Below, piece by piece: positions 29,196 through 64,000 of a stretch of DNA of 64,000 nt (position 1 is its first letter; the number at the start of each line of letters is the position of its first letter). Source of the DNA: Bispira polyomma. Lineage: Eukaryota. Both the position numbers and the translations under genes were made by a program. The notes beneath the pieces were generated by a model. That model saw only the letters and a list, made by a program, of their open reading frames with translations. It was not told the DNA's origin and ran no database searches. The stretch is taken from NCBI GenBank assembly GCA_965649765.1, contig OZ287753.1, positions 7,440,001 through 7,504,000 of the forward strand, in the 5' to 3' direction.

Positions 29196-32100
29196 CTGAA
29201 CGGAAGAGTGCAATAACCACCAGTATAGATCAGTATTGTGATTAGTACTTAGCATATTATCAAAGGATAACAGTCAAAGAGGTTTGATTCTTCTCACATG
29301 AGATATACCAATTTATTACACACATTGATTAAAATAATGTTGAATTAAGTTAACAGGTCAATCCATATAAAGGTCATTTGTCTACAACAATATATTTTGG
29401 AAATATTTGGTTGACCCAATAGTTCTGACATTGGTCACTTACCGAGGGCTAATGATCCTATAAGCACCAGGACCGCCAAAGAAGAGCTACCAATGATATT
29501 GATCACTTACCAAAGGCTAATGATCCTATAAGCACCAAGACCGCCAAAGAAGAGCTACCAATGATATTGATCACTTACCAAAGGCTAATGATCCTATAAG
29601 CACCAGGACCACCAAAGAAGAGCTACCAATGATATTGATCACTTACCAAAGGCTAATGATCCTATAAGCACCAGGACCGCCAAAGAAGAGGTACCAGTGA
29701 TATTGGTCACTTACCAAAGGCTAGTGATCCTATAAGCACCAGGACCACCAAAGAGCTACCAATGATATTGGTCACTTACCAAAGGCTAATGATCCTATAA
29801 GTACCAGGACTGCCCATAGAGGAGCTACCAATGATATTGGTCCCTTACCCAGGGTAAATACTTTTAAAAAAACAGGACTTCCATAGAAGAGCTACCAGTG
29901 ATAATGGTCACTTACCAAGGCCTACTATTCCTATAAGCCCCAGGAGCCCCACAGAGGTGCCAGCAATGGTTGATGTACTGGCTCCGGTCTCAGTCTGAGG
30001 CTCATCTGCCTCTTGTCTACCACTGCGAGAACGTCTTTGTCGTGCTGGTAAAATAAGTATGGTTTACAAACACCAATGAATATATTGGGAGAAAAAAAAA
30101 ATCTTTTTATTACAAATACTTTTATTTATAGTCTGTTTTTGCTAAGTGATCAGGCAAAAACAGGTTGAACTTAATATCCAGAACATCACATCTGGTATTT
30201 ATCAATGCGGTTCACTTTGAAGCAATGCAAATCCTGTCAAACGCTGACATGGCTTATGTTTAAAAATATGTTAGAGTGTAGGATTAAATGTTCTAGGGAT
30301 CATGCCTGAATACCTTCTATAATACTTATTTATTTAATAAAATATCTGAATATCGCCTACCTGACTGAAGACCAGAAAATACAGCAGAGGTTTTAAAAAA
30401 CAACCGACCCATATAAGTGACCATTTTTACTGACTCCCGAGGGTGACAAACTTCAATGCATCTGACATACATCTGGTTTTTATCTCGACCATTAAAGGAC
30501 AGAATAACAAAGGACTTAATTACCATGTTATCAGAGCATTTTAGAGGTGGGATTCTTACAAACACTCATACACAATGGTACTGCTGTAAAAACTACTCAC
30601 TATCGCAGTAGGTTCCTGTCCAGCCACTTTCACATATACACTGGTAGGTGCCGACCCCGTCTGTGATGAAGTTTTCACACTTCTCCCCAATAGTGTGTGA
30701 GCTGGCTGAGCAACTGTCATAGCCCCCAGTCTCACAAGGTCCTTCAGAACAGTCCTCTCCTCTATTGTACACATACAGATCTAGGCTCAGGCTGGTCTCA
30801 CTTACTATTCCTTTAAACTGATGCTTTTTAAACATCAGAAACTGTACTATTTTTACATTGTGTAAACATAAAGAGAAGTAGGAAGCGTTTTATTTCTGAG
30901 ATTTCACTGCGTGACAGGCTTTACGACATACATTATATCCAAGCAGAAAAACCCTGTTACTTCAAAATCCGAGATCACATGTACAACTGGAACTCAAACA
31001 TCAAAAACTCTACTATTTGTCAAAATATGTTAATAATGATGTTGATGTCCGTAAAAGCCTGGTCACACCTACACATGCTGGAGCTACCTGTGTTTGTGTG
31101 ATGTTTTGAACTGTTTTGAAACGGGGCAGAAGATAATGCCAAAGTGAAAAAAGGTTTGAAATAATCGTGGCAGAGCTCTCCATTTCTCGAGGATGTCTTT
31201 ACTCGTCTGTAAAAGTAGCATAACGTAGTAGTAAGTAGCAGTAAGTAGTAGTAAGTGGTAGTATAGTGGCTCTACGTAGTAGTAGGTAGTGATATCCTAC
31301 CAGTAAAAGTGTTCGATTCTTGCCCCCGCTCTGTGTGTATAAGTTATGAAACATCATGAAATGTCACAATCGACTGCACCTTTATAAAAAATTACATCAC
31401 TTTGACACGTACCTAACACGTTTTTAGTTTACATTCTGTTACTACTATGTGGGACGTTAGTATGTGTAGGTATGACCAGGCTATTACTGACAACATCATG
31501 TACACATAAAGAGAAGCAGCTGGCATTTCGTTTCTGAGATTTCACATTTCATATGTTAGTTCTGTATATAGATTCTAATTATTATAGTAACATGTAAGTA
31601 CTTGCAGAAATTAAAATTGCAATAACAATGGTTTTGTTAGACCCAACCCTACATGGGTTTATGTGTCACTCTATAAACACATATACGTTTAATGTTACAG
31701 GTATATGTTACAGGTATAAGCGCTGTAAAAGTTAGATTAGATTAGGTATATATTATATTCTAACACAATACGGCTGTGTCCACGGTTGTGATTGGCTCAA
31801 TGATACGATAAAAATAATCGTATAAACATGGATTAAAGTAGACTAATTTTGTCTGCAGTGTACTTCTTGCCCAGTGGACATAGGTTCTTTAACAAAGTAA
31901 TTTTCCACTACCCAGTAACATGAAGGAGAATGCCTTGTTATGTGTTATTCCTTAAAAAAACCATAAGAACTTGTCACTGCATACCCATAGTTAGCCAAAC
32001 AAGTGCAGACATAGCCAACTTCTCCAGTGTCACTCTCTGTCAATTGACAGGTTCCAGAATTCTGGCAGGAAGAATTCAGACATGGATCTGTGGTAGAGCA

Positions 32101-35100
32101 GTTCTTTCCATACCAACCGTCTGTACAATTGCATTCATAGTTGGTCTGACTGGTCATGACACAGCTTGCTGAAAACAGGAAAAAAAAAGCTCAACACTTG
32201 TATCACAAGTAAACACAGAGAAAACAAATGATTTCTGAATGCCAAACACAATGAGGCATATATTTAATACATAACAATGTTCTTACTTGCGTTCTGACAT
32301 GGATTTGGATTATTGCACAAGTCCTTATCACTGCAGGTGTCTCCCTGCCAGCCTTCAGTACAACTGCAGGAGAAACTGTTGTCACCAACTGTGCAGTCCC
32401 CTCCATTGGCACATGGGTTTCCTGTACACTCATCAGTGTCAATGTTACACGTCTCTCCTTAAAAAAACATAAAAATAAGAAATCTAAAAAACCCATCTTA
32501 AAACAAATTTAAAATGTATTTCTTTAGAAGTCTAACATAATATATATGCCATTTTTGACCTATGTACTGTGTGACAGGCTTTAGAACATACAGTATATCC
32601 AAACAGAGAAACCTTGTTACCTGTAAATCCAGAATCACATGTACAGCTGAAACTCCCTGCTGAATTTGTACAAGACCCATGACCACAGGGATTGTTTGCA
32701 CACTCATCAATGTCTGCATCACACACTTCACCTGAAAACAACTGCAAGTTTACACTTTTCCTATACACAGAAACTTGACATAGACATTTTATGCATCATA
32801 GACACTATATACAAGAACAAAGTTAAGACAGCTAATTAAAACATCACGTCAATCAGTTACACAATCAGCGAAAGCCTAGCAGTATAGCAAATAATTAAAA
32901 TTACACTATATACAAGAACAAAGTTAAGACAGCTAATTAAAACATCACGTCAATCAGTTACACAATCAGCGAAAGCCTAGCAGTATGGCAAATAATTAAA
33001 ATTACAGTTAACATCTATTACTGTATTGGGCATAAGGTCACCTTACATTAAACAGTACATAATGTACTCTTTTATCTCACTTTTGACTTACCTCAAAATA
33101 CTTAAGTAAATCTAAAAAGTAAAATTAAGTCAACCTTAACTGAATTACCAACCTTAAGTTGACTCACCTCAAAACTTTATCAATCTTAAAGGAATTTAAG
33201 TCAACCTTAACTAAATTAAGGTGACTTGATAACCCCAACTTACCTTGAACTGTATACACAACCTGGTAGATATTAACGGGTGTAGGGAAACCATTTTGCA
33301 CAACACCTATATTATGTAATCAACTGTGTCAATGGATTTTTTTAAATAAATAATTTATAGCAGGCCCTATTTTTGTATTTGAATAAATATTAATCATTTC
33401 CCAAGAATATTTTGGGTTTCTTTCTTTGAGATGTATTTATTGACTGGTCTAACTGAATTAATTGAACACTTTGGATATAAATATAAATTAACATTGACAA
33501 AGAAAACTTTAAGAGGTCTTTATTGACAGGTCTCACTGTATTAACCATACATGGGGACAACTAAGGGAACTTCTTGGCTTCTTCATGCATATTTTTTCTC
33601 ATTAATGTACCTGTAAAGCCAGCAACACATTCGCATGAGAAATCGTCTACAAGATCAGTACAGACTCCTTCATTTTCACATGGCTCTTGAGCACAATCAT
33701 CAATATTGGTTTCACAGGTATCACCTAAAATCACAATTGTTAGTCATAATAATAATATACATGTATCACTAAACTATGCTCTTCAGAACAAATTAGTAAA
33801 AGTGGGAAATTTACTATATCACATCAATTAGTGTTTTAGTGATGTTTCTCAACCAGAAATACAATCTAAAATTAAAAAGTATGATGGTCAATCATTAAAA
33901 TAAATAAGTAACATCAAAGAGCAGGAATTGAGAGATTCAGCAACTACAAACATCCATTCGGTCTATGTTTACTTGGCCATCTCAAGAAAGTTACCAAGCA
34001 TGGCTAAATATACTCTTCACTAGACTTGGATAATAATGAACTTCTGATGTGGAAAAAGAGAAAAACTATTTTGGACACCACCTATATTATTAAAATAGTT
34101 GTGTAGAATGATTTTAAAAAATAAAACCATTTCTAATATGTGCTTTAATTTTTGTTTTTAAATAAATATCAATCCTTTTCCAAGGAATAATTTGGGGGTC
34201 TTTGTTTGAGAGTTATATTATGCAAATAGTTGTGTAGAATAATTTAAAAAAATAACATTTTCTAATATGTGCTTTAATTTTTGTGTTTGAATAAATATCA
34301 ATCATTTCCAAGGAATGTGTTGGGAGTTTTTGTTTAAGAGGTATTTATAGTCTGGTTTAACTGTATTAACTAAAAGCCTTGGATATAAATAGAAATTAAC
34401 ATTGACAAAGAACACATTGGGGTCTTTCTTTAACAGGTTTTTATAGACAGGTCTTACTGTATTAACCATACATGAGGGCAACTAAGAGAATTTCTTGGCT
34501 TCTTCATGCATATTTTTTCTCATTAATGTACCTGTAAAGCCAGCAACACATTCGCATGAGAAATCATTTACAAGATCAGTACAGATTCCTTCATTTTCAC
34601 ATGGCTCTGGAGCACATTCATCAATATTGGTTGCACAGGTATCACCTAAAATCACAATTGTTAGTCATAATAATAATATACTTGTATCATTAAACTATAC
34701 TTTTAAGAACAAATTAGTAAAAGTGGGAAGTTTACTATGTTTACTATGTTACATCAATTAATGTTTTAGTGATGTTTCTCACATTGAAATATAATCTAAA
34801 ATTAAAAAGTACGACGGTCAATCATTAAAATAAATAAGTAATATCAAAGATTAGGAATTGAGAGATTTAGCAACTACAAACATCTATTCAGTCTATGTTT
34901 ACTTGGCCATCTCCAGAAAGTTACCAAGCATGGCTAAATATACTCTTCACTAGACTTGTATAATAATGAACTTCTGATGTGGAAAAAGAGTAAAACTTTT
35001 TTGGACACCACCTATATTATTAAAAAATTGCGTAGAATGATTTTAAAAAATAAAACCATTTCTAATATGTGCTTAAATTTTTGTTTTTAAATAAATATCA

Positions 35101-38100
35101 ATCCTTTCCAAGGAATATTTTGGGGGTCTTTGTTTGAGAGTTAATGATAGTCTAACTGTATTAACTAAAAGCCTTGGCTATAAATAGAAAATAACATTGA
35201 CAAAGAACACATTGGGGTCTTTCTTTAAGAGGTTTTTATAGACAGGTCTTACTGTAATAACCATACATAAGGACAACTAAGGGAATTTCTTGGCTTTTTC
35301 ATGCATATTTTTTCTCATTAATTTACCTGTAAAGCCAGCAACACATTCGCATGAGAAATCGTCTACAACATCAGTACAGACTCCTTCATTTTCACATGGC
35401 TCTGGAGCACATTCATCAATATTGGTTTCACAGGTATCACCTAAAATCACAATTGTTAGTCAAATAATAATATACTTGTATCATTAAACTATGCTTTTCA
35501 GAACAAATTAGTAAAAGTGGGAAATTTACTATGTCACATCAATTAGTGTTTTAGTGATGTTTCTCACCTAGAAATACAATTTAAAATTAAAAAGTATGAT
35601 AGTCAAACATTAAAATAAATAAGTAACATCAAAGAGCAGGAATTGAGAAATTTAACAACTACAAACATCCATTCAGTCTATGTTTACTTGACGATCTCAA
35701 GAAAGTTACCAAACATGGCTAAATATACTCTTCACTAGACTTGGATAATAATGAACTTCTGATGTGGAAAAAGAGAAAAACTATTTTGGACACCACCTAT
35801 ATTATTAAAATAGTTGTGTAGAATGATTTTAAAAAATAAAACCATTTCTAATATGTGCTTTAATTTTTGTTTTTAAATAAATATCAATCCTTTTCCAAGG
35901 AATAATTTGGGGGTCTTTGTTTGAGAGTTTGAATTTGGATATTTAACGTCCACTCTAGTACCTTTTAGTAGGTTATATTGGGACGGGTAGTTGGAAATGC
36001 TGGAGGAAACACTTCATACAGCTGTTGTTTTTAAATAAATATCAATCCTTTTCCAAGGAATAATTTGGGGGTCTTTGTTTGAGAGTTTGAATTTGGATAT
36101 TTAACGTCCACTCTAGTACCTTTTAGTAGGTTATATTGGGACGGGTAGTTGGAAATGCTGGAGGAAACACTTCATACAGTCGGTCAAGGTTCTGCAGAGA
36201 AACCAGCGGCCCACAGTAAGGATCTACCACCTTTCCCACATAAGCATCGACGGGATTCGAACTCACGCCGCCCAGAGGTGAGAGACCAGTGATTGTGAAG
36301 CGCAATGCTTGCTAACCACGAGGCCACCGTGGCCCCTTCACTAGACTTGGATAATAATCAACTTCTGATGTGTAAAAAGAGTAAAACTATTTTGGACACC
36401 ACCTATATTATGCAAATAGTTGTGTAGAATAATTGAAAAAATTAACCATTTCTAATATATGCTTTAATTTTTGTGTTTGAATAAATATCAATCATTTCCA
36501 AGGAATGTGTTGGGAGTTTTTGTTTAAGAGGTATTTATAGTCTGGTTTAACTGTATTAACTAAAAGCCTTAGATATAAATAGAAATTAACATTGACAAAG
36601 AACAAATTTGGGTTTTTATAGACAACAGGTCTTGCTGTATTAACCATACATGAGGACAACTAAGGGAATTTCTTGGCTTCTTCATGTATATTTTTTCTCA
36701 TTAATGTACCTGTAAAGCCAGGAACACATTCGCATGAGAAATCATTTACAAGATCAGTACAGACTCCTTCGTTTTCACATGGCTCTTGAGCACATTCATC
36801 AATATTGGTGTCACAGGTATCACCTAAAATCACAATTTTAATCAATAATATTATACTTGTATCATTAAACTATGCTTTTCAGAACAAATTAGTAAAAGTG
36901 GGAAGTTTACTATGTTACACCAATTAATGTTTTAGTGATGTTTCTCACATAGAAATACAATCTAAAATTAAAAAGTATAACGGTCAAACATTAAATAAAA
37001 TAAGTAACATCAAAGACCAGGAATTAAGAGATTCAGCAACTACAAACATCCAGTCAATCTATGTTTACTTGGCCATCTCAAGAAAGTTACCAAGCATGGC
37101 TAAATATACTCTTCACTAGACTTGGATAATAATCAACTTCTGATGTGGAAAAAGAGTAAAACCATTTTTGACACCTCTTATAATATCGAAATAGTTGTTT
37201 AGAATGATTTTAAAAAACAAGATAAGAATAGAGTGGCCCTTGTGGGCCACATCATCAGTTGTTATGAAGGGGAGGGGCTGTAAATGTGGATAGGTAGTTG
37301 TTTATTGGTGTGAAAGGATTGAATTGTGGTGTGTAAAGGACTTTTGTTTTGTTAAAGAGGGCGAAGGTAAGATTTTAGTTGTGTTGTGAAGTGGGATATG
37401 AAGTGATGTTGTAGATGGAGATGTGAATTATGTTAGTGGATTATATGGTGAGTGTTTATTGTTTGTCTAAAGATAAGGTCAACGTGTTATGGTCGGAGAA
37501 GGTACAAGAATTGGTTGAGGGGTGTAGTGGGAGGGATGAGAAGCATAAGTTGATGAGGGTGCCGTAGCAAGATGTTGTGGTAGATTGCTGTTGTGCTTGG
37601 AAGGTGGCATTCATAGGTTGTAGCAATGTTTTATTTTGTGGTGATTGTATATTGATGTTGAAATCGCCATGGACAATGTAAGACCGAATGGGGGGTTGTA
37701 TTTGTTGTGTAAATTTTTTATGTCAGGTATGCTACAGTAATTTGCAGAGTATATGAGAACAATGACAATTGGATTAGAAGGCAGTTGTTGTAATTGTACA
37801 ATCCTGTATTAAAATGTGGGGGTGTTGAATTGATGATGGGACAACACTATGCATGAATTCAGTATATAAATGATTAATCCATGCGGAGGTCTAGTTGTGT
37901 GGCAATGATGGGTTTGGTTGTTTCTGATGCATGTAAAGTGGTCAATGTGGTATGATTGTTGGTCGGTAGGTTGAAGTCTGGATTCACATATGGTAATGAT
38001 GTCAGCGTCAGTGGAGATGCTAGAGAACTAAAAGCCTTGGATATTAATAGAAATTAACATCGACAAAGAACACATTTAGGTCTTTCTTTAAGAGGTTTTA

Positions 38101-41100
38101 TAGACAGGTCTTACTGTATTAACCATACATAAGGACAACTAAGGGAATTTCTTGGCTTCTTCATGCATATTTTTTCTCATTATTTTACCTGTAAAGCCAG
38201 CAACACATTCGCATGAGAAATCATTTACAAGATCAGTACAGATTCCTTCGTTTTCACATGGCTCTGGAGCACAATCATCAATATTGGTTTCACAGGTATC
38301 ACCTAAAATCACAATTGTTAATCATAATAATATTATACTTGTATCATTAAACTATGCTTTTCAGAACAAATTAGTAAAAGTGGGAAGTTTACTATGTTAC
38401 ATCAATTAATGTTTTAGTGATGTTTCTCACATAGAAATACAATCTAAAATTAAAAAGTACGACGGTCAATCATTAAAATAAATGAGTAATATCAAAGATT
38501 AGGAATTGAGAGATTTAGCAACTACAAACATCCTTTCAGTCTATGTTTACTTGACCATCTCAAGAAAGTTATCAAGCATTGCTAAATATACTCTTCACTA
38601 GACTTGGATAATAATCAACTTCTGATGTGGAAAAAGTGGAAAACATTTTTGGACACCACCTATATTATTAAAATAGTTGTGTAGAATGATTTTAAAAAAT
38701 AAAACCATTTCTAATATGTGCTTTAATTTTTGTTTTTAAATAAATATCAATCCTTTCCAAGGAATATTTTGGGGGTCTTTGTTTGAGAGTTATTGATAGT
38801 CTGGTCTAACTGTATTAACTAAAAGCCTTGGATATAAATAGAAATTAACATTGACAAAAAACACATTGGGGTTTTTCTTTAAGAGGTTTTTATAGACAGG
38901 TCTCACTGTATTAACCATACAGGAGGACAACTAAGGGAATTTCTTGGCTTTTTCATGCATATTTTTTCTCATTAATTTACCTGTAAAGCCAGCAACACAT
39001 TCGCATGAGAAATCATTTACAAGATCAGCACAGACTCCTTCATTTTCACATGGCTCTGGAGCACATTCATCAATATTGGTGTCACAGGTATCACCTAAAA
39101 TCACAATTGTTAATCATAATAATACTATACTTGTATCATTAAACTATGCTTTTCAGAACAAATTAGTAAAAGTGGGAAGTTTACTATGTCACATCAATTA
39201 GTGTTTTAGTGATGTTTCTAACCTAGAAATACAATCTAAAATTAAAAAGCACGACAGTCAATCATTAAAATAAATAAGTAACATCAAAAAGCAGGAATTG
39301 AGATATTCAGCAACTACAAACATCCATTCTGTCTATGTTTACTTAACCATCTCAAGAAAGTTACCAAGCATGGCTAAATATACTCTTCACCAGACTTAGA
39401 TAATAATCAACTTCTGATGTTAAAAGGAGTAAAACTATTTTGGACACCATCTATATTATGCAAATAGTTGTGTAGAATGATTTAAAAAATAAAACCATTT
39501 CTAATATGTGCTTTAATTTTTGTGTTTGAATAAATATCAATCCTTTTCAAGGAATATTTTGGGGGTCTTTGTTTGAAAGTTATTGATAGCCTGGTCTAAC
39601 GTTATTAACTAAAAGCCTTGGATGAAAATAGAAATTAACATTGACAAAGAACACATTGGGGTCTTTCTTTAAGAGGTTTTTATAGACAGGTCTCACTGTA
39701 TAAACATACATGAGGACAACTAAGGGAATTTCGTGGCTTTTTCATGCCTATTTTTTCTCATTAATTTACCTGTAAAGCCAGCAACACATTCGCATGAGAA
39801 ATCATTTACAAGATCAGTACAGACTCCTTCATTTTCACATGGCTCTTGAGCACAATCATCAATATTGGTTTCACAGGTATCACCTAAAATCACAATTGTT
39901 AATCATAATAATATTATACTTGTATCATTAAACTATGCTTTTCAGAACAAATTAGTAAAAGTGGGAAGTTTACTATGTTACATCAATTAATGTTTTAGTG
40001 ATGTTTCTCACATAGAAATACAATCTAAAATTAAAAAGTATGACGGTCAATCACTAAAATAAATAAGTAACATCAAAGAGCAGGAATTGAGAGATTCAGC
40101 AATTACAAACATCTATTCAGTCTATGTTTACTAGGCCATCTCAAGGAAGTTACCAAGCATTGCTAAATATACTCTTCACTAGACTTGGATAATAATGAAC
40201 TTCTGATGTGGAAAAAGAGTAAAACTATTTTGGACACCACCTATATTGTGCAAATAGTTGTGTTGAATAATTTAAAAAAATAAAACCATTTCTTATATGT
40301 GCTTTAATTTTGTGTTTGAATAAATATCAATCATTTCCAAGGAATATTTTGGGGATCTTTTTTACTGTATTAACCATACATGATGACAACTAAGCGAACA
40401 TCTTGGCTTCTTCATGCATATTTTTTCTCATTAATGTACCTGTAAAGCCAGCAACACATTCGCATGAGAAATCATTTACAAGATCAGTACAGACTCCTTC
40501 ATTTTCACATGGCTCTGGAGCACAATCATTAATATTGGTTTCACAGGTATCACCTAAAATCACAATTTTAATCATAATAATATTATACTTGTATTATAAA
40601 ACTATGCTTTTCAGAACATATTAGTAAAAGTGGGAAGTGTACTATGTCACATCAATTAGTGTTTCAGTGATGTTTCTCACCTAGAAATACCATCTAAAAT
40701 TAAAAAATACAACGGTCAATTATTAAAAAGAGGGAACATGAAAAAGCAGGAATTGAGAGATTCAGCTACTACAAACATCCATTCAGTCTATGTTTACTTG
40801 GCCATCTCAAGAAAGTTACCAAGCATTGCTAAATATACTCTTCACTATACTTGGATAATAATCAACTTCTGATTTGGAAAAAGAGTAAAACTATTTTGGA
40901 CACCACCTATATTATGCAAATAGTTGTGTTCAATGATTTAAAAAGACATTTCTAATATGTGCTTTAATTTTGTGTTTGAATAAATATCAATCATTTCCAA
41001 GGAATATTTTGGGGATCTTTTTTACTGTATTATCCATACATGATGACAACTATGCGAACTTCTTGGCTTCCTCATGTATATTTTTTCTCATTAATTTACC

Positions 41101-44100
41101 TGTAAAGCCAGCAACACATTCGCATGAGAAATCATTTACAAGATCAGTACAGACTCCTTCATTTTCACATGGCTCTGGAACACAATCATCAATATTGGTT
41201 TCACAGGTATCACCTAAAATCAAAATTTTAATCATAATAATATTATACTTGTATCATTAAACTATGCTTTTCAGAACAAATTAGTAAAAGTGGGAAGTTT
41301 ACTAAGTTACATCAATTAATGTTCTAGTGATGTTTCTTACATAGAAATACAATCTAAAACTATAAAGTATGATGGTCATGCATTAAAATAAATAAGTAAC
41401 ATCAAAGAGCAGGAATTGAGAGATTCAGCAATTACAAACATCCATTCAGTCTATGTTTACTTGGCCATCTCAAGAAAGTTACTAAGCATTGCTAAATATA
41501 ATCTTCACTAGACTTGGATAATAATCAACTTCTGATGTCGAAAAAGAGTAAAACTTTTTGGGACACCACCTATATTATTGAAATAGTTGTGCAGAATGAT
41601 TTTAAAAAATAAAACCATTTCTAATATGTGCTTTAATTTTAGTGTTTGAATAAATATCAATCCTTTCCAAGGAATATTTTGGGGGTTTTTGTTTGAGAGT
41701 TATTGATAGCCTGGTCTAACTGTATTAACTAAAAGCCTTGGATAAAAATAGAAATTAACATTGACAAAGAACACATTTAGGTCTTTCTTTAAGAGGTTTT
41801 ATAGACAGGTTCTACTGTATTAGCCATACATGAGAACAACTAAGGGAATTTCTTGGCTTCTTCATGCATATTTTTTCTCATTATTTTACCTGTAAAGCCA
41901 GCAACACATTCGCATGAGAAATCATTTACAAGATCAGTACAGATTCCTTCGTTTTCACATAGCTCTGGAGCACAATCATCAATATTGGTGTCACAGGTAT
42001 CACCTAAAATCAAAATTTTAATCATAATAATATTATACTTGTATCATTAAACTATGCTTTTCAGAACAAATTAGTAAAAGTTAGAAGTTTACTATGTTAC
42101 ATCAATTAATGTTTTAGTGATGTTTCTCACATAGAAATACAATCTAAAATTAAAAAGTACGACAGTCAATCATTAAAATAAATAAGTAATATCAAAGAGC
42201 ATCAATTTAGATATTCAGCAACTACAAACTTCCAATCAGTCTATGTTTACTTGGCCATCTCAAGGAAGTTACCAAGCATTGCTAAATATACTCTTCACTA
42301 GACTTGGATAATAATCAACTTCTGATGTAGAAAAAAAGTAAAACTCTTTTGGACACCACCTATATTATTAAAATAGTTGTGTAGAATGATTTTAAAAAAT
42401 AAAACCATTTCTAATATGTGCTTTAAATTTTGTTTTTAAATAAATATCAATCCTTTCCAAGGAATAATTTGGGGGTCTTTGTTTGAGAGTTATTGATAGT
42501 CTGGTCTAACTGTATTAACTAAAAGCCTTGGACATAAATAAAACTTAACATTGACAAAGAACACATTGGGCTCCTTCTTTAAGAGGTTTTTATAGACAGG
42601 TCTCACTGTATTAACCATACATGAGGACAACTAAGGGAATTTCGTGGCTTTTTCATGCATATTTTTCCTCATTAATGTACCTGTAAACCCAGCAACACAT
42701 TCGCATGAGAAATCATTTACAAGATCAGTACAGATTCCTTTATTTTCACATGGCTCTGGAGCACAATCATCAATATTGGTGTCACAGGTATCACCTAAAA
42801 TCACAATTTCAATCACAATAATACTATACTTGTATCATTAAACTATGCTTTTCAGAACAAATTAGTAAAAGTGGGAAGTTTACTATGTCACATCAATTAG
42901 TGTTTTAGTGATGTTTCTCACCTAGAATTACGATCTAAAATTAAAAAGCACGACAGTCAATCATTAAAATAAATAAGTAACATCAAAGAGCAGGAATTGA
43001 GAGATTCAGCAACTACAAACATCCATTCAGTCTATGTTTACTTGACCATCTCAAGAAACTTACCAAGCATGGCCAAATATACTCTTCTCTAGACTTACAT
43101 AATAATCAACTTCTGATGTTAAAAGGAGTAAAACTATTTTGAACACCATCTATATTATGCAAATAGTTGTGTAGAATGATTTTAAAAAATAAAAACAGTT
43201 CTAATATGTGCTTTAATTTTTGTGTTTAAATAAATATCAATCCTTTCCAAGGAATATTTTGGGGTTCATTGTTTTAGAGTTATTGATAGCCTGGTCTAAC
43301 TGTATTAACTAAAAGCCTTGGATAAAAATAGAAATTAACATTGACAAAGAACACATTGGGGTCTTTCTTTAAGAGGTTTTTATAGACAGATCTCACTGTA
43401 TTAACCATACATGAGGACAACTAAGGGAATTTCTTGGCTTTTCATGCATATTTTTTCTCATTAATTTACCTGTAAAGCCAGCAACACATTCGCATGAGAA
43501 ATCATTTACAAGATCAGTACAGATTCCTTCGTTTTCACATAGCTCTGGAGCACAATCATCAATATTGGTTTCACAGGTATCACCTAAAATCAAAATTTTA
43601 ATCATAATAATATTATACTTGTATCATTAAACTATGCTTTTCAGAACAAATTAGTAAAAGTGGGAAGTTTACTATGTTACATCAATTAATGTTTTAGTGA
43701 TGTTTCTCACATAGAAATACAATCTAAAATTAAAAAGTAAGACGGTCAATTATTAAAATAAATAAGTAACATCAAAGAGCAGGAATTGAGATATTCAGCA
43801 ATTAAAAACATCCATTCAGTCTATGTTTACTAGGCCATCTCAAGGAAGTTACCAAGCATTGCTAAATATACTCTTCATTAGACTTGGATAATAATGAACT
43901 TCTGATGTGGAAAAAGAGTAAAACTATTTTGGACACTATATTGTGCAAATAGTTGTGTTGAATAATTTAAAAAAACATTTCTAATATGTGCTTTAATTTT
44001 GTGTTTGAATAAATATCAATCATTTCCAAGGAATATTTTGGGGATCTTTTTTACTGTATTAACCATACATGATGACAACTAAGCGAACTTCTTGGCTTCT

Positions 44101-47100
44101 TCATGCATATTTTTTCTCATTAATGTACCTGTGAAGCCAGCAACACATTTGCATGAGAAATCATTTACAAGATCAGTACAGACTCCTTCATTTTCACATG
44201 GCTCTGGAGCACACTCATTAATATTGGTTTCACAGGTATCACCTAAAATCACAATTTTAATCATAATAATATTATACTTGTATTATAAAGCTATGCTTTT
44301 CAGAACCAATTAGTAAAAGTGGGAAGTGTACTATGTCACATCAATTAGTGTTTTAGTGATGTTTCTCACCTAGAAATACCATCTAAAATTATAAAATACG
44401 ACGGTCAATTATTAAAAAAAGGGAACATCAAAGAGCAGGAATTGAGAGATTCAGCAACTACAAACATCCATTCAGTCTATGTTTATATGGCCATCTCAAG
44501 AAATTTACCAAGCATGGCTAAATATACTCTTCACTAGACTTACATAATAATCAACTTATGATTTGGAAAAAAGAGTAAAACTATTTTGGACACCACCTAT
44601 ATTATGCAAACATCAGAGAAAGTTCTCCCCATAAACCACTGCTTTATTTTTTTAGCAGAAAAATTTGGAAATTTTTTTTTTTTTATAGAAAAAAACAGCA
44701 AAATTCGTGACGCCTTCCCAACGATACATCACTTTAACCCTCTAGCCCCAGGATATAAGGTTTGTAACCTGTTTCCTTTTAGTACACTGTCAGAGCCTGA
44801 AGTTCTGAAACTCATACAATCTTCTACCATTAAATCTTGTGACTTAGATCCCATCCCAGCAGTTATACTGAATCAATGTCTTGACATTCTTGTCACACCC
44901 ATAACAAATATATCAAATTTTTCTCTTCGGGATGATGTTTTTCCCACCTGTTTCAAGACGGCAAACGTAACTCCCTTGATTAAAAAACAAGGGCTTCATA
45001 AAAACCAGCTCAAAAACTACAGACCGGTGTCAAACCTCAGCTTCATCTCAAAAGTCATCGAGAAAGCTGTAGCTAAACAAATTTCTGACCACCTTAATAG
45101 ACAAAACATTGAAAATTGCCATCAGTCTGCTTATAGAAAATTTCACTCTACAGAAAGTGCCCTTTTTCAATTAGCAATGATATCAATCTTGCACTGGACC
45201 GCAATGACACAGTGGCCCTCACCCTTCTGGATATCTCAGCTGCATTCGACACTATTGATCATGTCCTGCTCTGCGACACTCTTAAGCAGTGGTTTGGTAT
45301 AAATGGCAGTGTCCTTAAATGGATCAGATCCTACCTTACTCTTAGGGCACAAAGAATTAAACTAGATGATCACCTATCATCTTCCATAAAACTTCCATAT
45401 GGAATACCCCAGAGATCCGTCCTTGGTCCTCTACTTTTCACCCTTTATACACATCCTCTCAGCACTGTCATCAATAAACACAATATAAAACACCACATGT
45501 ATGCAGACGACACTCAAGTCTATCTCTCCCTCAATCCACAAAACGCAGATACTAACATAGACCTACTTGCAGACTGTCTGTCTGATGTCCAGGCGTGGAT
45601 GAACTACTCCAAACTAAAGCTTAACCCTGACAAAACAGAATTCATCCTCATAGGAAACAAGAAAAACCGTGAACTCCTAAAATCTTTGTTTCCCATCTCC
45701 CTGCTGGGAAAAGACATACTACCTTCCGAAAATGCTAAAAACCTGGGTGTCACTTTTGATTCAGCTTTTTCGTTCGATACTCATGTTGCCAACATCTGTC
45801 GCTCCTGCTATTACCACACATGCGACATCAAAAGAATCAGAAACCACTTGTCCATGGACACAGCGATAACTGTGGCAAATGCCCTTGTGAGTAGCCGCCT
45901 CGACTACTGCAATTCTCTCTTGTACGAAGCAAACAAGTCAAACATTAAAAATCTCCAGTTCATCCAAAACTACCTATGTAGGGTCATTTTTCGCCTGGGT
46001 TGTCGCACAGACGTCACTCCTAACCTCAAAAAATTACACTGGTTGCCCATTAAATCTCGAATTTTGTTTAAGATTCACGTTACCACTTTTAAGGCTGTAG
46101 TCACTCAACAGCCACCCTACCTTGCCTCCCTTCTTTCCTTCAGTAACCGCAAGAGAGGCAACAGACTCTCTGTCACTTCGGTCAGACCAATCAGAAAGGC
46201 GGGTTTCAGAGCGTTCTCCACTGCAGCTCCACGGTTATGGAACAGTCTCCCAGTTGACCTCAGATCAGTTGATACACTTATCGGTTTTAGGAAAAAGCTT
46301 AAAACCTATCTTTTTAATCTTGCCTACCCACCTTAGCTTTCCTCGTGCACGCTCCCACTTCCTTCCTTACGACTTTGCAATTTCCATGGACTTAATGATT
46401 GGACTAATGATTCTGCTGTTGCGCTTTAGAAGATGCCTAGCATCAATAAAGCGCGTTAAAAATCTATAATAATAATAATAGTTGTGTTGAATGATTTAAA
46501 AAGACATTTCTAATATGTGCTTTAATTTTGTGTTTGAATAAATATCAATCATTTCCGAGGAATATTTTGGGGATCTTTTTTACTGTATTATCCATACATG
46601 AGGACAACTATGTGAACTTCTTGGCTTCTTCATGCATATTTTTTCTCATTAATTTACCTGTAAAGCCAGCAACACATTCGCATGAGAAATCATTTACAAG
46701 ATCAGTACAGACTCCTTCATTTTCACATGGCTCTGGAGCACAATCATCAATATTGGTGTCACAGGTATCACCTAATATCACAATTTTAATCATAACAATA
46801 TTATACTTGTATCATTAAACTATGCTTTTCAGAACAAATTAGTAAAAGTGGGAAGTTTACTATATCACATCAATTGATGTTCTAGTGATGTTTCTTACAT
46901 AGAAATACAATCTAAAACTAAAAAGTATGATGGTCAATCATTAAAATAAATAAGTAACATCAAAGAGCAGGAATTGAGAGATTCAGCAATTACAAACATC
47001 TATTCAGTCTATATTTACTTGGCCATCTCAAGAAAGTTACTAAGCATTGCTAAATATACTCTTCACTAGACTTGGATAATAATCAACTTCTGAGGTCGAA

Positions 47101-50100
47101 AAAGAGTAAAACTTTTTGGGACACCACCTATATTATTGAAACAGTTGTGTAGAATGATTTTAAAAAATAAAACCATTTCTAATATGTGCTTTAATTTTAG
47201 TGTTTAAATAAATATCCATCCTTTCCAAGGAATATTTTAGGGGTCTTTGTTTGAGAGTTATTGATAGCCTGGTCTAACTGTATTAACTAAAAGCCTTGGA
47301 TAAAAATAGAAATTAACATAGACAAAGAACACATTGGGGTCTTTCTTTAAGAGGTTTTTATAGACAGGTCTCACTGTATTAACCATACAGGAGGACAAGT
47401 AAGGGAATTTTTTGGCTTTTCATGCATATTTTTTCTCATTAATTTACCTGTAAAGCCAGCAACACATTCGCATGAGAAATCATTTACAAGATCAGTACAG
47501 ATTCCTTCGTTTTCACATAGCTCTGGAGCACAATCATCAATATTGGTGTCACAGGTATCACCTAAAATCACAATTTTAATCATAATAATATTATACTTGT
47601 ATCATTAAACTATGCTTTTCAGAACAAAATAGTAAAAGTGGGAAGTTTACTATGTTACATCAATTATTGTTTTAGTGATGTTTCTCACATAGAAATACAA
47701 TCTAAAATTAAAAAGTATGACGGTCAAACATTAAAAGAAATAAGTAATATCAAAGAGCAGGAATTGAGAGATTCAGCAACTACAAACATCCAGTCAGTCT
47801 TTGTTTACTTGGCCATCTCAAGAAAGTATCCAAGCATGGCTAAATATACTGTTCACTAGACTTGGATAACAGTCAACTTCTGATGTGGAAAAAGAGTAAA
47901 ACTATTTTGGACACCACCTATATTGTGCAAATAGTTGTGTTGAATAATTTAAAAAAACATTTCTAATATGTGCTTTAATTTTGTGTTTGAATAAATATCA
48001 ATAATTTCCAAGGAATATTTTGGGGATCTTTTTTACTGTATTAACCATACATGATGACAACTAAGCGAACTTCTTGGCTTCTTCATGCACATCTTTTCTC
48101 CTTAATGTACCTGTAAAGCCAGCAACACATTCGCATGAGAAATCATTTACAAGATCAGTACAGACTCCTTCATTTTCACATGGCTCTCGAGCACATTCAT
48201 CAATATTGGTTGCACAGGTATCACCTAAAATCACAATTGTTAGTTATAATAATAATATACTTGTATCATTAAACTATGTTTTTCAAAACAAATTAGTAAA
48301 AGTGGGAAATTTACTATGTCACATCATTTAGTGTTTTAGTGATATTTTTCACATAGAAATACTATCTAAAATGAAAAAGTATGACGTTCAATCATTAAAA
48401 TAAATAAGTAACATCAAAGAGCAGGAATTGAGAGATTTAGCAACTACAAAAATCCAGTCAGTCCATGTTTACTTGGCAATTTCAAGAAAGTTACCAAGCA
48501 TGGCTGAATATACTCTTCACTAGACTTGGATAATAATCAACTTCTAATGTTAAAAGGAGTAAAACTATTTGGACACCATTTATATTATGCAAATAGTTGT
48601 GTAGAATGATTTTAAAAAATAAAACCATTTCTAATATGTGCTTTAATTTTTGTGTTTGAATAAATATCAATCATTTCCAAGGAATATTTTGGGGATCTTT
48701 CTTTGAGAGGTATTTATAGTCTGGTCTAACTGTATTTACTAAAAGCCTTGGATATAATTATAAATTAACATTGTGAAAGAACACGTTGGGCTCTTTCTTT
48801 AAGAGGTCTTTACAGACAGGTCGCACTGTATTAACCATACATGAGGACAACTAAGGGAACTTCTTGACTTCTTCATGCATATTTTTCTCCTTAATGTACC
48901 TGTAAAGCCAGCAACACATTTACATGAGAAATCATTTACAAGATCAGTACAGATTCCTTCATTTTCACATGGCTCTGCAGCACATTCATCAATATTGGTT
49001 GCACAGGTATCACCTAAAATCACAATTGTTAGTCATAATAACAATATACTTGTATCATTAAACTATGCTTTTCAGAACAAATTAGTAAAAGTGGGAAATT
49101 TACTATGTCACATCAATTAGTGTTTTAGTGATGTTTCTCAAATAGAAATACAATCTAAAATTAAAAAGTATGACGGTCAATCATTAAAATAAATAAGTAA
49201 CATCAAAGAGCAGGAATTAAGAGATTCAGCAACTACAAATATCCAGTCAGTCTATGTTTACTTGGCCATCTCAAGAAAGTTACCAAGCATGGCTAAATAT
49301 ACTCTTCACTAGACTTGGATAATAGTCAACTTCTGATGTGGAAAAAGAGTAAAACTATTTTGAACACCACCTATATTTTGCAAATTGTTGTGTAGAATGA
49401 TTTTAGAATATAAAACCATTTCTTATATGTGCTTTAATTCTTGTGTTTGAATAAATATCAATCATTTCCAAGGAATATTTTGGGCGTCTTTCTTTGAGAG
49501 GTATTTATAATCTGGTCTAACTGTATTAACTAAAAGCCTTGGATATAATTATAAATTAACATTAAGAAAGAACACGTTGGGCTCTTTCTTTAAGAGGTCT
49601 TTACAGACAGGCCCCACTGTATTAACCATACATGAGGACAACTAAGGGAACTTCTTGGCTTCTTCATGCACATTTTTTCTCCTTAATGTACCTGTAAAGC
49701 CAGCAACACATTCGCATGAGAAATCATTTACAAGATCATTACAGACTCCTTCATTTTCACATGGCCCTGGAGCACATTCATCAATATTGGTTGCACATGT
49801 ATCACCTAAAATCACAATTGTTAGTCATAATAATAATATACTTGTATCATTAAACTATGCTTTTTAGAACAAATTAGTAAAAGTTGGAAATTTACTATGT
49901 CACATCAATTAGTGTTTTAGTGATGTTTCTCAAATAGAAATACAATCTAAAATTAAAAAGTATGACGGTCAAACATTAAAAAAATAAGTAACATCAAAGA
50001 GCAGGAATTAAGAGATTTAGCAACTACAAACATCCAGCCAGTCTATGTTTACTTGGCCATCTCAAGAAAGTTACCAAGCATGGCTAAATATACTCTTCAC

Positions 50101-53100
50101 TAGACTTGGATAATTTGAATTTGGATATTTAACGTCCACTCTAGTACCTTTTAGCAGGTTATATTGGGATGGGTAGTTGGAAACGCTGGAGGAAACACTG
50201 CATACAGTCGGTCAAGGTTCTGCAGAGAAACCAGCAGCCCACAGTAAGGAACTACCACCTTTCCCACATAGACATCGACGGGATTCGAACTCACGCCGCC
50301 CAGAGGTAAGAGACCAGTGATTGTGAAGCACAATGCTTGTGAACCACTAGGCCACCATGGCCCCCACTAGACTTGGATAATAGTCAACTTCTGATGTGGA
50401 AAAAGAGTAAAACTATTTGAACACCACCTATATTATGCAAATAGTTGTGTAGAATGATTTTAGAAAATAAAACCATTTCTTATATGTGCTTTAATTCTTG
50501 TGTTTGCATAAATATCAATCATTTCCAAGGAATATTTTGGGGGTCTTTCTTTCAGAGGTATTTATAGTCTGGTCTAACTGTTTTAACTAAAAGCCTTGGA
50601 TTTAATTATAAATTAACATTGACAAAGAACATGTTGGGGTCTTTCTGTAAGAGGTCTTTATAGAGAGGTCTCATTGTATCAACCATATATGAGGCCAACT
50701 GAGGGAACTTTTTGGGATCTTCATGCATATTTTTTATCATTAATGTACCTGTAAAGCCAGCAACACATTCGCATGAGAAATCATTTACAAGATCAGTACA
50801 GACTCCTTCATTTTCACATGGCTCTGGAGCACATTCATCAATATTGGTTTCACAGGTATCACCTAAAATCACAATTGTTAGTCATAATAATAATATACTT
50901 GTATCATTAAACTATGCTTTTCAGAACAAATTAGTAAAAGTGGGAAATTTACTCTATGTCACATCAATTAGTGATTTAGTGATGTTTCTCACATAGAAAT
51001 ACAATCTAAAATTAAAAAGTATGATGGTCAATCATTAAAATAAATAAGTAACATCAAAGAGCAGGAATTGAGAGATTCAGCAACTACAAACATCCATTCA
51101 GTCTACGTTTACTTGACCATCTCCAGAAAGTTACCAAGCATGGCTAAATATACTCTTCACTAGACTTGGATAATAATCAACTTCTGATGTTAAAAGGAGT
51201 AAAACTATTTGGACACCATCTATATTATGTAAATAGTTGTGTAGAATGATTTAAAAAAAATAAAACCATTTGTAATATGTGCTTTAATTCTTGTGTTTGA
51301 ATAAATATCAATCATTTCTAAGGAATATTTTGGGGGTCTTTCTTTGAGAGGTATTTAGAGTCTGGTCTAAGTGTATTCACTAAAAGCCTTGGATATAATT
51401 ATGAATTAACATTGAGAAAGAACACGTTGGGCTCTTTCTTTAAGAGGTCTTTACAGACAGGTCGCACTGTATTAACCATACATGAGGACAACTAAGGGAA
51501 CTTCTTGGCTTCTTCATGCATATTTTATCTCATTAACGTACCTGTAAAGCCAGCAACACATTCGCATGAGAAATCATTTACGAGATCAGTACAGACTCCT
51601 TCATTTTCACATGGCTCTGGAGCACATTCATCAATATTGGTTTCACAGGTATCACCTAAAATCACAATTGTTAGTCATAATAATAATATACTTGTATCAT
51701 TAAACTATGCTTTTCAGAACAAAATAGTAAAAGTGGGAAATTTACTATGTCACATCAATTAGTGTTTTAGTGATGTTTCTCAAATAGAAATACAATCTAA
51801 AATTAAAAAGTATGACGGTCAAACATTAAAAAAATAAGTAACATCAAAGAGCAGGAATTGAGAGATTCAGCAACTACAAACATCCAGTCAGTCTATGTTT
51901 ACTTGGTTTCTTCATGCATATTATATCTCATTAATGTACCTGTAAAGCCAGCAATACATTTACATGAGAAATCATTTACGAGATCAGTACAGACTCCTTC
52001 ATTTTCACATGGCTCTGGAGAACATTCATTAATATTGGTTTCACAGGTATCACCTAAAATCACAATTGTTATTCATAATAATAATATACTTGTATCATTA
52101 AACTATGCTTTTCAGAACAAATTAGTAAAAGTGGGCAATTTACTCTATGTCACATCAATTAGTGATTTATTGATGTTTCTCACATAGAAATACAATCTAA
52201 AATTAAAAAGTATGACGGTCAATCATTAAAATAAATAAGTAACATCAAAGAGCAGGAATTAAGAGATTTAGCAACTACAAATATCCAGTCAGTCTATGTT
52301 TACTTGGCCATCTCAAGAAGGTTACCAAGCATGGCTAAATATACTCTTCACTAGACTTGGATAATAATCAACTTCTGATGTTAAAAAGAGTAAAACTATT
52401 TTGAACACCACCTATATTTTGCAAATAGTTGTGTAGAATGATTTTAGAATATAAAACCATTTCTTATATGTGCTTTAATTCTTGTGTTTGAATAAATATC
52501 AATCATTTCTAAGGAATATTTTGGGGGTCTTTCTTTGAGAGGTGTTTATAGTCTGGTCTAACTGTATTAACTAAAAGCCTTGAATATAAATAGAAATTAA
52601 CATTGACAAAGAACAAGTTCGGGTCTTTCTTTAAGAAGTCTTTATAGACAGGTCCCACTGTATTAACCATACATGAGGACAACTAAGGGAACTTCTTGGC
52701 TTCTTCATGCATATTTTATCTCATTAATGTACCTGTAAAGCCAGCAACACATTCGCATGAGAAATCATTTACGAGATCAGTACAGACTCCTTCATTTTCA
52801 CATGGCTCTGGAGCACATTCATCAATATTGGTTTCACAGGTATCACCTAAAATCGCAATTGTTAGTCATGATAATAATATACTTGTATCACAAACTATGC
52901 TTTTCGGTGATGGGAGCAAGCGCGGTAGCAATTACCGGTTGCTTTGAGGTTGTAACAGGAAAAGACAAAAAGTTTCACTTAACAAATTTATTTTAACAAA
53001 TAAAATAACAATTACAGAATTACAAAATTATACAATTACAAAATTACAGTCAACTGAGATACCCTTAATAGCTCACACAATAATACAATAATGAAATCAA

Positions 53101-56100
53101 TCTGACCTGACCACAGTCCTGTCCACTCAAATAACAATTAAACCAGTTTGTCCACTGTATCCAGCAATCTGTCTTGAGGTCCGCTCAATGTCCACACAAT
53201 GCCTGTATCCTGCTATCCGTTCAGTGTCCATGCACACAAAATGTATATATCCAGAGAATCTGCACAACCAAGCTATCCAGTCCAGGATGCAAACACTATC
53301 CAATATGTAGTAAATCCAATCTCTGGTAGATCCACAACTTTTATCCAGTTCACTCCAATGAGTTCACCACAAAATGTATATAACAAACAGTTTATATCCA
53401 CAGTATAGTAGTTCATATAGAATTCATATAGCACCTCAGCTCCACTAACTCTCTTCTGTGGCCAGGCTGTCAACCCTTATATATACCACTGCTAGAGAAG
53501 GTTGCTAAAATGTGTAAGCAATTGCTAGGACATTCCAGAGATGAGATATACATATGAATACAACTTTAATAACCTTCAGAAATAAAATAGAACTGGTTTC
53601 TAGAATCTTAGGGGTTTCCCCAAATCTATCAATAGATCACTCCAGCAGAGTGTAAGACCATTAGTACTAACTAGACCGGATTTTCTTCAACACACCATAA
53701 TGTCCCCATATGTAACACCTCCCCCCTTAAAGAAAAATTTTGGAAGCCAAGGGGTTACAAAATTTCATATTACACAAAACATAAGTGAACATACAGTGTA
53801 CATATTGATCCATGAAACATTGTATTTTAAGTTACACAAGTAATATCCATAAGTAAACATCTAAGTTTTACAAGTTACAACTTTTCAGTTACTAACATAC
53901 AAAATAACCTTTAACTACAACTTCTTGATAGAGCATCAGCACAAATGTTATCCTTTCCTTTAACATGCTCTATTTGTAAACTGTATTCTTGCAAAACCAA
54001 ACTCCAATTCAATAGACGTCTGTTTTTGTTTTTCATTTTGTGCAAGAATACTAAAGGGTTGTGATCTGTGTACACAATAGTTGGTTTTGATGATGAAGAT
54101 ATATATATATCAAAGTGTTTAATGGCTAAAATGAGGGCTAAACATTCCTTTTCTATTGTAGAGTAATTCTTTTGATGTACGTTAAATTTTTTTGAAAAAT
54201 AACAAATGGGATGTTCAATATCTTCATCGTCAGTCTGCAGTAAAACTGCACCTGCCCCAACATCACTGGCATCCACAGCTAACCGAAATGGTCTATTGAA
54301 GTCTGGAGCAGTTAGTACAGGCTCCGAACAGAGAACATTTTTTACTTTGTCAAATGCTTTTTGACAAGTTTCAGACCAGTGATATTTTACGTTTTTTTCA
54401 AGAGCTCAGTCAGTGGAGCAGTGACATCTGAGAAATTTTTACAAAATTTCCTATAATAACCTAACATTCCCAGAAACCTCATTAAACTTTTCTTATTTCT
54501 AGGAATGGGATAGTCAATGATGCTTTCAACTTTTGCTTTAATTGGTGTCACAACTCCATGACCAACTACATGCCCTAAGTAAACAACCTTCGCTTTTACA
54601 AAGTCACTTTTCGATAGATTCACAGTAAGGTTGGCTTGCTTGAGCTGAAACAGAACTTGTTCAAGTCTTTTCAAATGTTCTTCCCAAGTATCACTAAAGA
54701 TGACAATATCATCCACATACACTTCAACCCCTTCTAAGTTCCTTAAACATATATTCATTAGTCTCTGAAATGTAGCTTGGGAATTTTTCATGCCAAATGG
54801 CATTACCTTGTACTGATACAGACCATCGGGAGTTACAAATGCTGATATTTCTTTTTCCAAAAGTTACCAAACATGGCTAAATATACTCTTCACTAGACTT
54901 GGATAATAGTCAACTTCTGATGTGGAAAAAGAGTAAAACTATTTTGAACACCACCTATATTTTGCAAATAGTTGTGTAGAATGATTTTAGAATATAAAAC
55001 CATTTCTTATATGTGCTTTAATTCTTGTGTTTGAATAAATATCAATCATTTCTAAGGAATATTTTGGGGGTCTTTCTTTGAGAGGTGTTTATAGTCTGGT
55101 CTAACTGTATTAACTAAAAGCCTTGGATATAAATAGCAATTAACATTGACAAAGAACAAGTTCGGGTCTTTCTTTAAGAAGTCTTTATAGACAGGTCCCA
55201 CTGTATTAACCATACATGAGGACAACTAAGGGAACTTCTTGGCTTCTTCATGCATATTTTATCTCATTAATGTACCTGTAAAGCCAGCAACACATTCGCA
55301 TGAGAAATCATTTACGAGATCAGTACAGACTCCTTCATTTTCACATGGCTCTGGAGCACATTCATCAATATTGGTTTCACAGGTATCACCTAAAATCACA
55401 ATTGTTAGTCATAATAATAATATACTTGTATCATTAAACTATGCTTTTCAGAACAAAATAGTAAAAGTGGGAAATTTACTATGTCACATCAATTAGTGTT
55501 TTAGTGATGTTTCTCACATAGAAATACAATCTAAAATTAAAAAGTATGATGGTCAAACATTATAAAAATAAGTAACATCAAAGAGCAGGAATTGAGAGAT
55601 TAAGCAACTACAAATATCCAGTCAGTCTATGTTTACTTGGCCATCTCAAGAAAGTTACCAAGCATGGCTAAATATACTCTTCACTAAACTTGGATAACAG
55701 TCAACTTCTGATGTGGAAAAAGAGTAAAACTATTTTGAACACAACCTATATTATGCAAATAGTTGTGCAGAATTATTTTATAAAATAAAACCATTTCTAA
55801 TATGTGCTTTAATTTTTGTGTTTAAATAAATATCAATCATTTCCAAGGAATATTTTGGGGGTCTTTCTTTGAGAGGTATTTATAGTCTGGTCTAACAGTA
55901 TCAACTAAAAGCCTTGGATATAAATAGAAATTAACATTGGGAAAGAACACATTGGGGTCTTTCTTTAAGAGGTCTTTACAATCAGGTCTCACTGTGTCAA
56001 CCATACATGAGGACAACTAAGGGAACTTCTTGGCTTCTTCATGCATATTTTTTCTCATTAATGTACCTGTAAAGCCAGCAACACATTCGCATGAGAAATC

Positions 56101-63484: not shown

Positions 63485-64000
63485 CTAAAATCACAATTGT
63501 TAGTCATAATAATAATATACTTGTATCATTAAACTATGCTTTTCAGAACAAAATAGTAAAAGTGGGAAATTTACTATGTCACATCAATTAGTGTTTTAGT
63601 GATGTTTCTCAAATAGAAATACAATCTAAAATTAAAAAGTATGACGGTCAAACATTATAAAAATAAGTAACATCAAAGAGCAGGAATTAAGAGATTCAGC
63701 AACTACAAACATCCAGTCAGTCTATGTTTACTTGGCCATCTCAAGAAAGTTTCCAAGCATGGCGAAATATACTCTTCACTAGACTTGGATAATAGTCAAC
63801 TTCTGATGTGGAAAAAGAGTAAAACTATTTTGAACACCACCTATATTTTGCAAATAGTTGTGTAGAATGATTTTAGAAAATAAAACCATTTCTTATATGT
63901 GCTTTAATTCTTGTGTTTAAATAAATATCAATCATTTCCAAGGAATATTTTGGGGGTCTTTCTTTCAGAGGTATTTATAGTCTGGTCTAACTGTATTAAC

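Follow-up and report, generated by a model that had tools for sequence, protein, structure and literature searches.

In the 37-bp VNTR of human F7 intron 7 (IVS7) the first monomer straddles an exon-intron boundary, and minisatellites built in this way have also been described in IFI6 (6-16), CBS IVS13, LMNB2 and PDGF (PMC1557585); in the parts of that report considered here the authentic donor alone is used in F7, LMNB2 and PDGF, being in F7 the most upstream donor. According to the same portions of the text, the pseudo-donors of F7 do not compete even when they are strengthened, whereas 6-16 and CBS make use of two extra donors. In amphioxus, the repeats termed mirages have been found in Adh3 and in the globin genes BflGb6 and BflGb9, at both exon boundaries; their inner units are homogenised, the edge units stay outside this process, and splicing appears to be normal (PMC3087553, as far as the examined text describes them). 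The CBS variant c.844_845ins68, a 68-bp intron/exon duplication, has been suggested to serve the working exon as a template for conversion, the duplication being neutralised by splicing (PMC2630376, in the sections considered). A TGC (UGC) near the acceptor is named, in the part of PMC8797185 covered here, as a feature of eMIC/SRRM4 neural microexon targets.

In the window (the whole stretch of 64,000 nucleotides of Bispira polyomma DNA analysed here), an exon that encodes part of a transmembrane (TM) helix is followed by seven further copies of its own end and splice donor. We consider it probable that this is an intronic minisatellite, that splicing takes place at the first donor, and that the seven copies are silent passengers.

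The donor array and its host gene

The gene lies on the minus strand, and its model is based on sequence and paralogy. At its 5' side, outside the window, are two fibronectin type II exons (Pfam fn2 above cut-off), and at least 46 EGF exons were recognised by pattern, 32 of them inside the window and 40 being copies of one exon+intron unit; these tandem units occupy 33610..64000 on the minus strand and run past the window. Toward the 3' end, the EGF array is followed by an atypical last EGF exon with a phase-1 donor (30601..30762), a 129-nt exon of phase 1-1 (30044-29916) and the last coding exon (29195-29017), all on the minus strand. The 129-nt exon encodes an RQRR motif, which we take to be a furin-type cleavage site, a short Ser/Thr/Gly stalk and the first three quarters of the TM helix. 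The rest of the helix comes from the last exon, together with basic stop-transfer residues, an acidic Ser/Thr-rich tail and the stop.

One paralog was found, on contig C8, with the same EGF-array layout and the same intron position within the TM helix. Its exon colinear with the 129-nt exon has the same 3' boundary, the two tails are 36% identical, and its TM is Ala-rich, unlike the repeat unit. The paralog supports the predicted gene model and also speaks for the first donor being authentic. Over the 13 codons from RQRR on (30004..30042, minus strand), 13/13 residues equal those of the paralog (L010:1567-1605) though saturation is reached at synonymous sites; this pattern suggests that cleavage at RQRR is conserved and gives the membrane stub a new N-terminus. 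For an orthologous TM, three word-based protein searches returned no match, the full protein probably exceeding their 2000-aa limit. A profile search made one orthologue-like EGF exon call (P0001, E 1.8e-12), which came without TM or context, besides 19 generic EGF proteins, and the ESM Atlas matches were all below 0.9.

The EGF arrays of both paralogs (window 33610-64000; G000:C8:58125000-58175300) consist of about 40 exon+intron units, independently homogenised, with pN/pS of about 0.6 and no Cys codon hit. Within the array of the window are a LINE-like reverse-transcriptase stretch (44562-46336, plus strand), two copies of a Gypsy-like RT/RNase H fragment (53911-54863 and 59632-60585, minus strand) carried in a higher-order duplication, and SINE-like inserts (36100-36340 and 50150-50370); the LINE-like, Gypsy-like and SINE-like labels are presumptive, being assigned from motifs. 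A neighbouring gene holds an 82-bp minisatellite (9181-9570, minus strand) that ends about 40 nt before the acceptor of an exon, presumably thrombospondin-type-1-like, and has no unit spanning that site.

Behind the TM exon, Tandem Repeats Finder reports an array at 29426-29945 with a period of 68, 7.7 copies, 87% matches and a score of 730. The preliminary description had proposed seven extra donors after the real one, and eight GGTAAG donors are indeed found, at 29915, 29848, 29779, 29714, 29646, 29578, 29510 and 29442 on the minus strand, six of the extras sharing the core of the real donor. The donor reads GTAAGTGA at seven of these sites and GTAAGGGA at the second. Units 1-7 measure 67, 69, 65, 68, 68, 68 and 68 nt, and sequence comparison identifies each 68-nt unit as the last 51 nt of the TM exon, the template of the repeat (29916..29966, minus strand), joined to the first 17 nt of the intron. 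The original intron start is still present after the last donor (29426..29442, minus strand), provided the 17 intron-derived nt found in every unit, and likewise opens with GTAAGTGA. The count of 41/58 identical positions given earlier for a gap-free alignment of the typical unit with the exon end is confirmed, and the colinearity is real over the last 51 nt; the first 17 nt are a copy of the intron, so the initial N-I of the peptide that had been read from the unit is intron-derived.

The units are not equivalent. Units 3-7 (29443..29779, minus strand) are homogenised, stop-free and hydrophobic in the exon frame, and each closes at a GTAAGTGA donor; their mutual identity is 44-49 of 48-51 positions, and their exon-derived 51 nt match the exon at 36-38/51. 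Units 2-7 are identical among themselves at 43-49 of 48-51 positions, whereas unit 1 reaches only 30-35 of 47-50. The statement that every donor is preceded by a TM-like sequence therefore holds for five of the seven units and fails for the first two: unit 1 (29849..29915, minus strand) is decayed (33-35/50 identical to other units), carries an in-frame stop and ends in the weaker donor GTAAGGG, and unit 2 (29780..29848, minus strand) has a 1-nt insertion and is TM-like in frame only over its last 10 codons. A 13-vs-0 rate asymmetry between unit 1 and the consensus was set aside; the changes in unit 1 fall mostly in one T/A-rich patch, which may represent one event.

The array is a single locus, and the unit was not found elsewhere in the 1.04-Gb genome. 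In contigs of three DNA-like runs (X1-X3, two samples of one study) both flanks are matched without other letters; these contigs collapse or break inside the array. An extra contig of run X3 has a loose end at 29389, beside which depth rises in all three runs; it may be another haplotype or a chance match, and a search of the genome with the 86 bases adjoining 29389 found no second locus.

Related arrays in the gene, its paralog and the genome

The same gene carries further arrays of this type on exons to which no TM logic applies. A 38-bp unit is repeated 22.6 times behind an EGF exon (G000:C6:7519250-7520120, L021, minus strand); it consists of the exon end and its donor, and the units are out of frame. 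An in-frame 30-bp array copies the end of a fibronectin-II exon with its donor (G000:C6:7530177-7530905, L022:6177-6905, minus strand), its frame staying open for about 100 codons and the array being interrupted by a SINE-like insert; splicing at its later donors would extend the protein by Cys-containing repeats of 10 residues. The second fibronectin-II exon is followed by a 47-bp array (L022:5139-5740, minus strand) in which a SINE-like insert parts the first copy from the rest, and which probably copies the exon end and a GTAGGG donor.

The donor array behind the TM exon is not shared with the paralog, which has no donor array. The TM-splitting intron of the paralog ends instead in a 42-bp unit repeated 16 times (L010:264-942, G000:C8:58114300-58114978, minus strand), unrelated in sequence and composed of a branch point, a pyrimidine tract and an acceptor. 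The AG is kept at 13/16 sites, including the last, real one; most decoy acceptors score like the real acceptor, and behind every decoy a stop is met within 1-21 codons. The acceptor array of the paralog is thus the mirror image of the donor array.

To place these cases in the genome, we sampled 100 segments of 10 kb (1 Mb) over 13 contigs and obtained 126 arrays. A loose test for copies of exon ends flagged 7/126, against 1, 3, 1, 4 and 5 in five controls, a result that alone proves little. Three of the 126 were firm when checked by hand: a DUF1866 exon and a teneurin-type EGF exon (both above the Pfam cut-off), and a 63-nt open exon end matched at 60-63/63; two more are plausible exon-end copies. 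The exon-end donor arrays of the sampled DNA are located at L056:8552-8938 (DUF1866 exon), L076:1359-1599 (teneurin-type EGF exon), L079:8979-9739 (coiled-coil-like exon), and L061:1-536 and L119:9118-9248 (two without an assigned exon type). Extrapolation from the three hand-checked cases indicates that there are probably a few thousand such exon-end arrays in the genome. Strong donor motifs were not enriched among the sampled arrays (9/101 against 6.8 expected, P = 0.24).

Codon differences and splice signals in the repeat units

The copied stretch holds 16 full codons, 11 of which differ between exon and unit, none of them synonymously, and none of the 11 becomes a charged, amide, His, Pro or stop codon. 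Counted by site, pN is 12/33 and pS is 1/15 (Fisher P = 0.04), the 13 nucleotide differences being spread across all 51 nt. In neutral simulations the joint P was 0.0007-0.002, and it was 0.001 when the mutation spectrum was estimated on 28 introns from the EGF array; once the choice of this array partly for its hydrophobicity is allowed for, P is about 0.03. These values are post hoc, for one array out of probably thousands. In the literature covered, which is partial, no report was found of a nonsynonymous skew between such units and their exon.

If this skew is not due to chance, arrays of this type would keep older coding states beside the working exon, selection could be read from one genome, and so rapid a change of a TM would be out of the ordinary. 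We regard it as unlikely that the repeat units are under protein-level constraint or record it, either as the fossil of an earlier TM or as stackable five-residue micro-exons that tune TM length. If true, exon-boundary minisatellites would be readable archives, or sources, of TM evolution, with a furin-cleaved EGF receptor as the case in hand.

The first of these two forms, in which the silent array is a snapshot of an older TM and the working TM has since been remodelled to a glycine-rich helix under protein-level selection, we hold to be doubtful. It would account for 11/16 differing codons that are never synonymous and always TM-compatible, and for a synonymous divergence between exon and unit (1/15) that matches the divergence among units 2-7. 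The unit consensus shares 10-11 states with the edge units 1 and 2 against the exon, the paralog agrees with the unit against the exon at 3 sites, and the exon TM has a 9-nt periodicity (at lag 9, 20/42 positions match in the exon and 15/42 in the unit), all of which is consistent with change on the exon side. However, the paralog agrees with the exon against the unit at 4 sites, and its synonymous sites are saturated. The direction of base change also favours decay on the array side: G+C falls from 57% in the exon to 47% in the unit, with 6 changes from GC to AT and 1 from AT to GC (P = 0.06), and placing the changes on the array side improves the fit by about 4 log-likelihood units. That the units have become poorer in G+C speaks for neutral decay. 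The two halves of the unit are alike beyond chance (P = 0.025), and several of the differences may therefore be templated and non-independent. The EGF repeats of the same gene show a pN/pS of 0.64, not above 1.

The second form is one of the splice products that the array might yield, and all AGs in the array were enumerated. Two in-frame options exist, whole-unit stretches of 60-63 nt and a 15-nt micro-exon. The whole-unit cassette exons were rejected: they would start at the AG of the previous donor's GTAAG, which scores -5.7 to -6.6 bits and thus lower than any of the 16 real acceptors. In mutually exclusive TM exons of the Dscam-like kind, each alternative TM has its own acceptor; as judged with the matrix from 16 acceptors, the TM-like units lack one. 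The preliminary description had also envisaged a longer or alternative TM form, and this did not survive, as the exchange of a whole unit has no usable acceptor.

An in-frame 15-nt stretch of phase 1-1 behind a TAG, also pointed out earlier, is present in six of the seven units, five encoding GSLAF and the last GSLAL. Taking the candidate at 29647..29661 as an example (minus strand; the others are at 29780-29794, 29715-29729, 29579-29593, 29511-29525 and 29443-29457), each unit would add five residues and lengthen the TM in some cells, possibly through neural eMIC/SRRM4 regulation, a proposal that we find very unlikely. Its acceptors are strong for intronic sites: the TAG scores 1.9-3.2 bits in units 3, 4, 6 and 7 (97th-99th percentile of intronic AGs), and the TAG of unit 5 scored the same as those of units 3, 4 and 7 in the first, later rebuilt acceptor matrix. 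At 3.2 bits, the value in most units, it beats up to 10/16 real acceptors, whereas the same site in the exon scores -1.1 bits; the matrix is small and home-made, from 16 acceptors of this genome with one doubtful site. The donors are as strong as the real one, and the changes in the unit created a TGC at -9 of the acceptor (unit 5). Against this, the fit of the frame follows largely from copying a coding exon end, and 15-18% of all YAG sites are preceded by a TGC in the same window. Another AG stands as close as 29 nt upstream (-29), and no CUAAY branch point occurs in the 60 nt upstream of the acceptor. The predicted 15-nt micro-exon is the only splice idea left standing, and it only in part fits the eMIC code.

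Still less likely, in our judgement, is a regulated donor switch between the full receptor and a tailless form that would be GPI-like or degraded by NMD. Reading through the real donor gives G-K-stop, as described before, with the TGA at 29910-29908 inside the first donor (29908..29915, minus strand). The repeat did not create this stop, since the intron start that follows the last donor likewise opens with GTAAGTGA. All of donors 2-8 keep the stop behind donor 1 and would give the same tailless product, and with this one in-frame stop ahead of them none can provide an alternative TM; the three-way choice of isoforms that had been suggested finds no support. The stop would sit 59-465 nt upstream of the junction if donors 2-8 were used. 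Under the mammalian rule, a stop more than 50-55 nt before a junction leads to NMD, and an mRNA from these donors would be a candidate for it. At the end of the read-through product stand small residues, followed by a spacer and a hydrophobic stretch, a putative GPI-signal-like end as judged by eye, and this likeness speaks for a switch, as do the core common to seven of the eight donors and the decoy acceptors in the same intron of the paralog, which also lead to early stops. However, plain intron retention would already have given the same tailless product before the repeat existed, and later donors add no second one. The repeat in the paralog is unrelated, such repeats stand on non-TM exons of the gene, and the F7 pseudo-donors do not compete (PMC1557585, in the parts considered).

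That the units are a gene-conversion reservoir feeding variants into the working TM is the least probable proposal, and we give it hardly any weight: the few synonymous differences are what conversion filtered by selection would leave, and the CBS duplication offers a precedent (PMC2630376, in the part considered), but a unit-like tract is not seen in the exon, the 13 differences are dispersed over the 51 nt, and the contigs of two samples, an assembly form that drops variants, have no other letters over the exon.

Comparison with described systems

We return to an intronic minisatellite spliced at its first donor as the probable explanation, for which the exon-boundary architecture, the edge units outside homogenisation, the recurrence of such arrays on non-TM exons, the unrelated repeat of the paralog, the GC-to-AT direction of change and the two frameshifted or stopped units speak. 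A tandem duplication at a short CA microhomology would have founded the array, which would then have expanded through slippage or unequal exchange. With the donor inside the duplicated stretch, the first exon-donor pair would stay intact, which would be why the array was tolerated; it would then have drifted neutrally from its exon under concerted evolution. If a later donor were used now and then, the outcome would be a single tailless product that ends in G-K-stop and is probably degraded.

Several observations weigh against silence of the copies. The pN/pS skew has a joint P of 0.0007-0.002, or about 0.03 when conditioned on the choice of array; the changes in the unit lift the internal TAG from -1.1 to 3.2 bits, besides creating the TGC at -9; and some pseudo-donors are used in IFI6 and CBS (PMC1557585, in the portions considered). 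The sampled arrays show no donor enrichment, and the genome-wide rate is derived from three hand-checked cases. The locus offers a natural test of whether the first donor wins beyond mammals and amphioxus, with a donor array in the gene and an acceptor array in the paralog, in the same TM-splitting intron.

Among the described systems, the eMIC microexons share with this array a short in-frame candidate and a UGC near the acceptor, but their strong CUAAY branch point is absent here, and where they have a long AG exclusion zone the previous AG of the candidate stands at -29 (PMC8797185, as far as considered). The CBS ins68 allele is likewise a duplicated intron/exon junction; it is one extra copy at an exon start, with population data, whereas here several copies lie at an exon end (PMC2630376, in part). 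Closer is the F7 IVS7 type, in which likewise the first monomer spans the boundary, the donor is repeated in the intron and the copy number is similar (5-9 in F7); the array described here differs in that 51/68 nt are exon-derived (4/37 in F7), a TM helix is copied, and unit and exon have diverged by about 25% (compared with the parts of PMC1557585 considered). The amphioxus mirages concern a different animal and gene, and the nonsynonymous skew between unit and exon is absent from the examined text of PMC3087553. Like them, the present array duplicates an exon boundary with its splice signals and has concerted inner units and excluded edges (as in BflGb6), and donor and acceptor versions both occur, here in the gene and its paralog (PMC3087553, in the same text). 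A boundary-spanning monomer, a reiterated splice signal and concerted inner units, the three structural features checked, are all found, and judged by its sequence the array is a further case of the described class of exon-boundary minisatellites.
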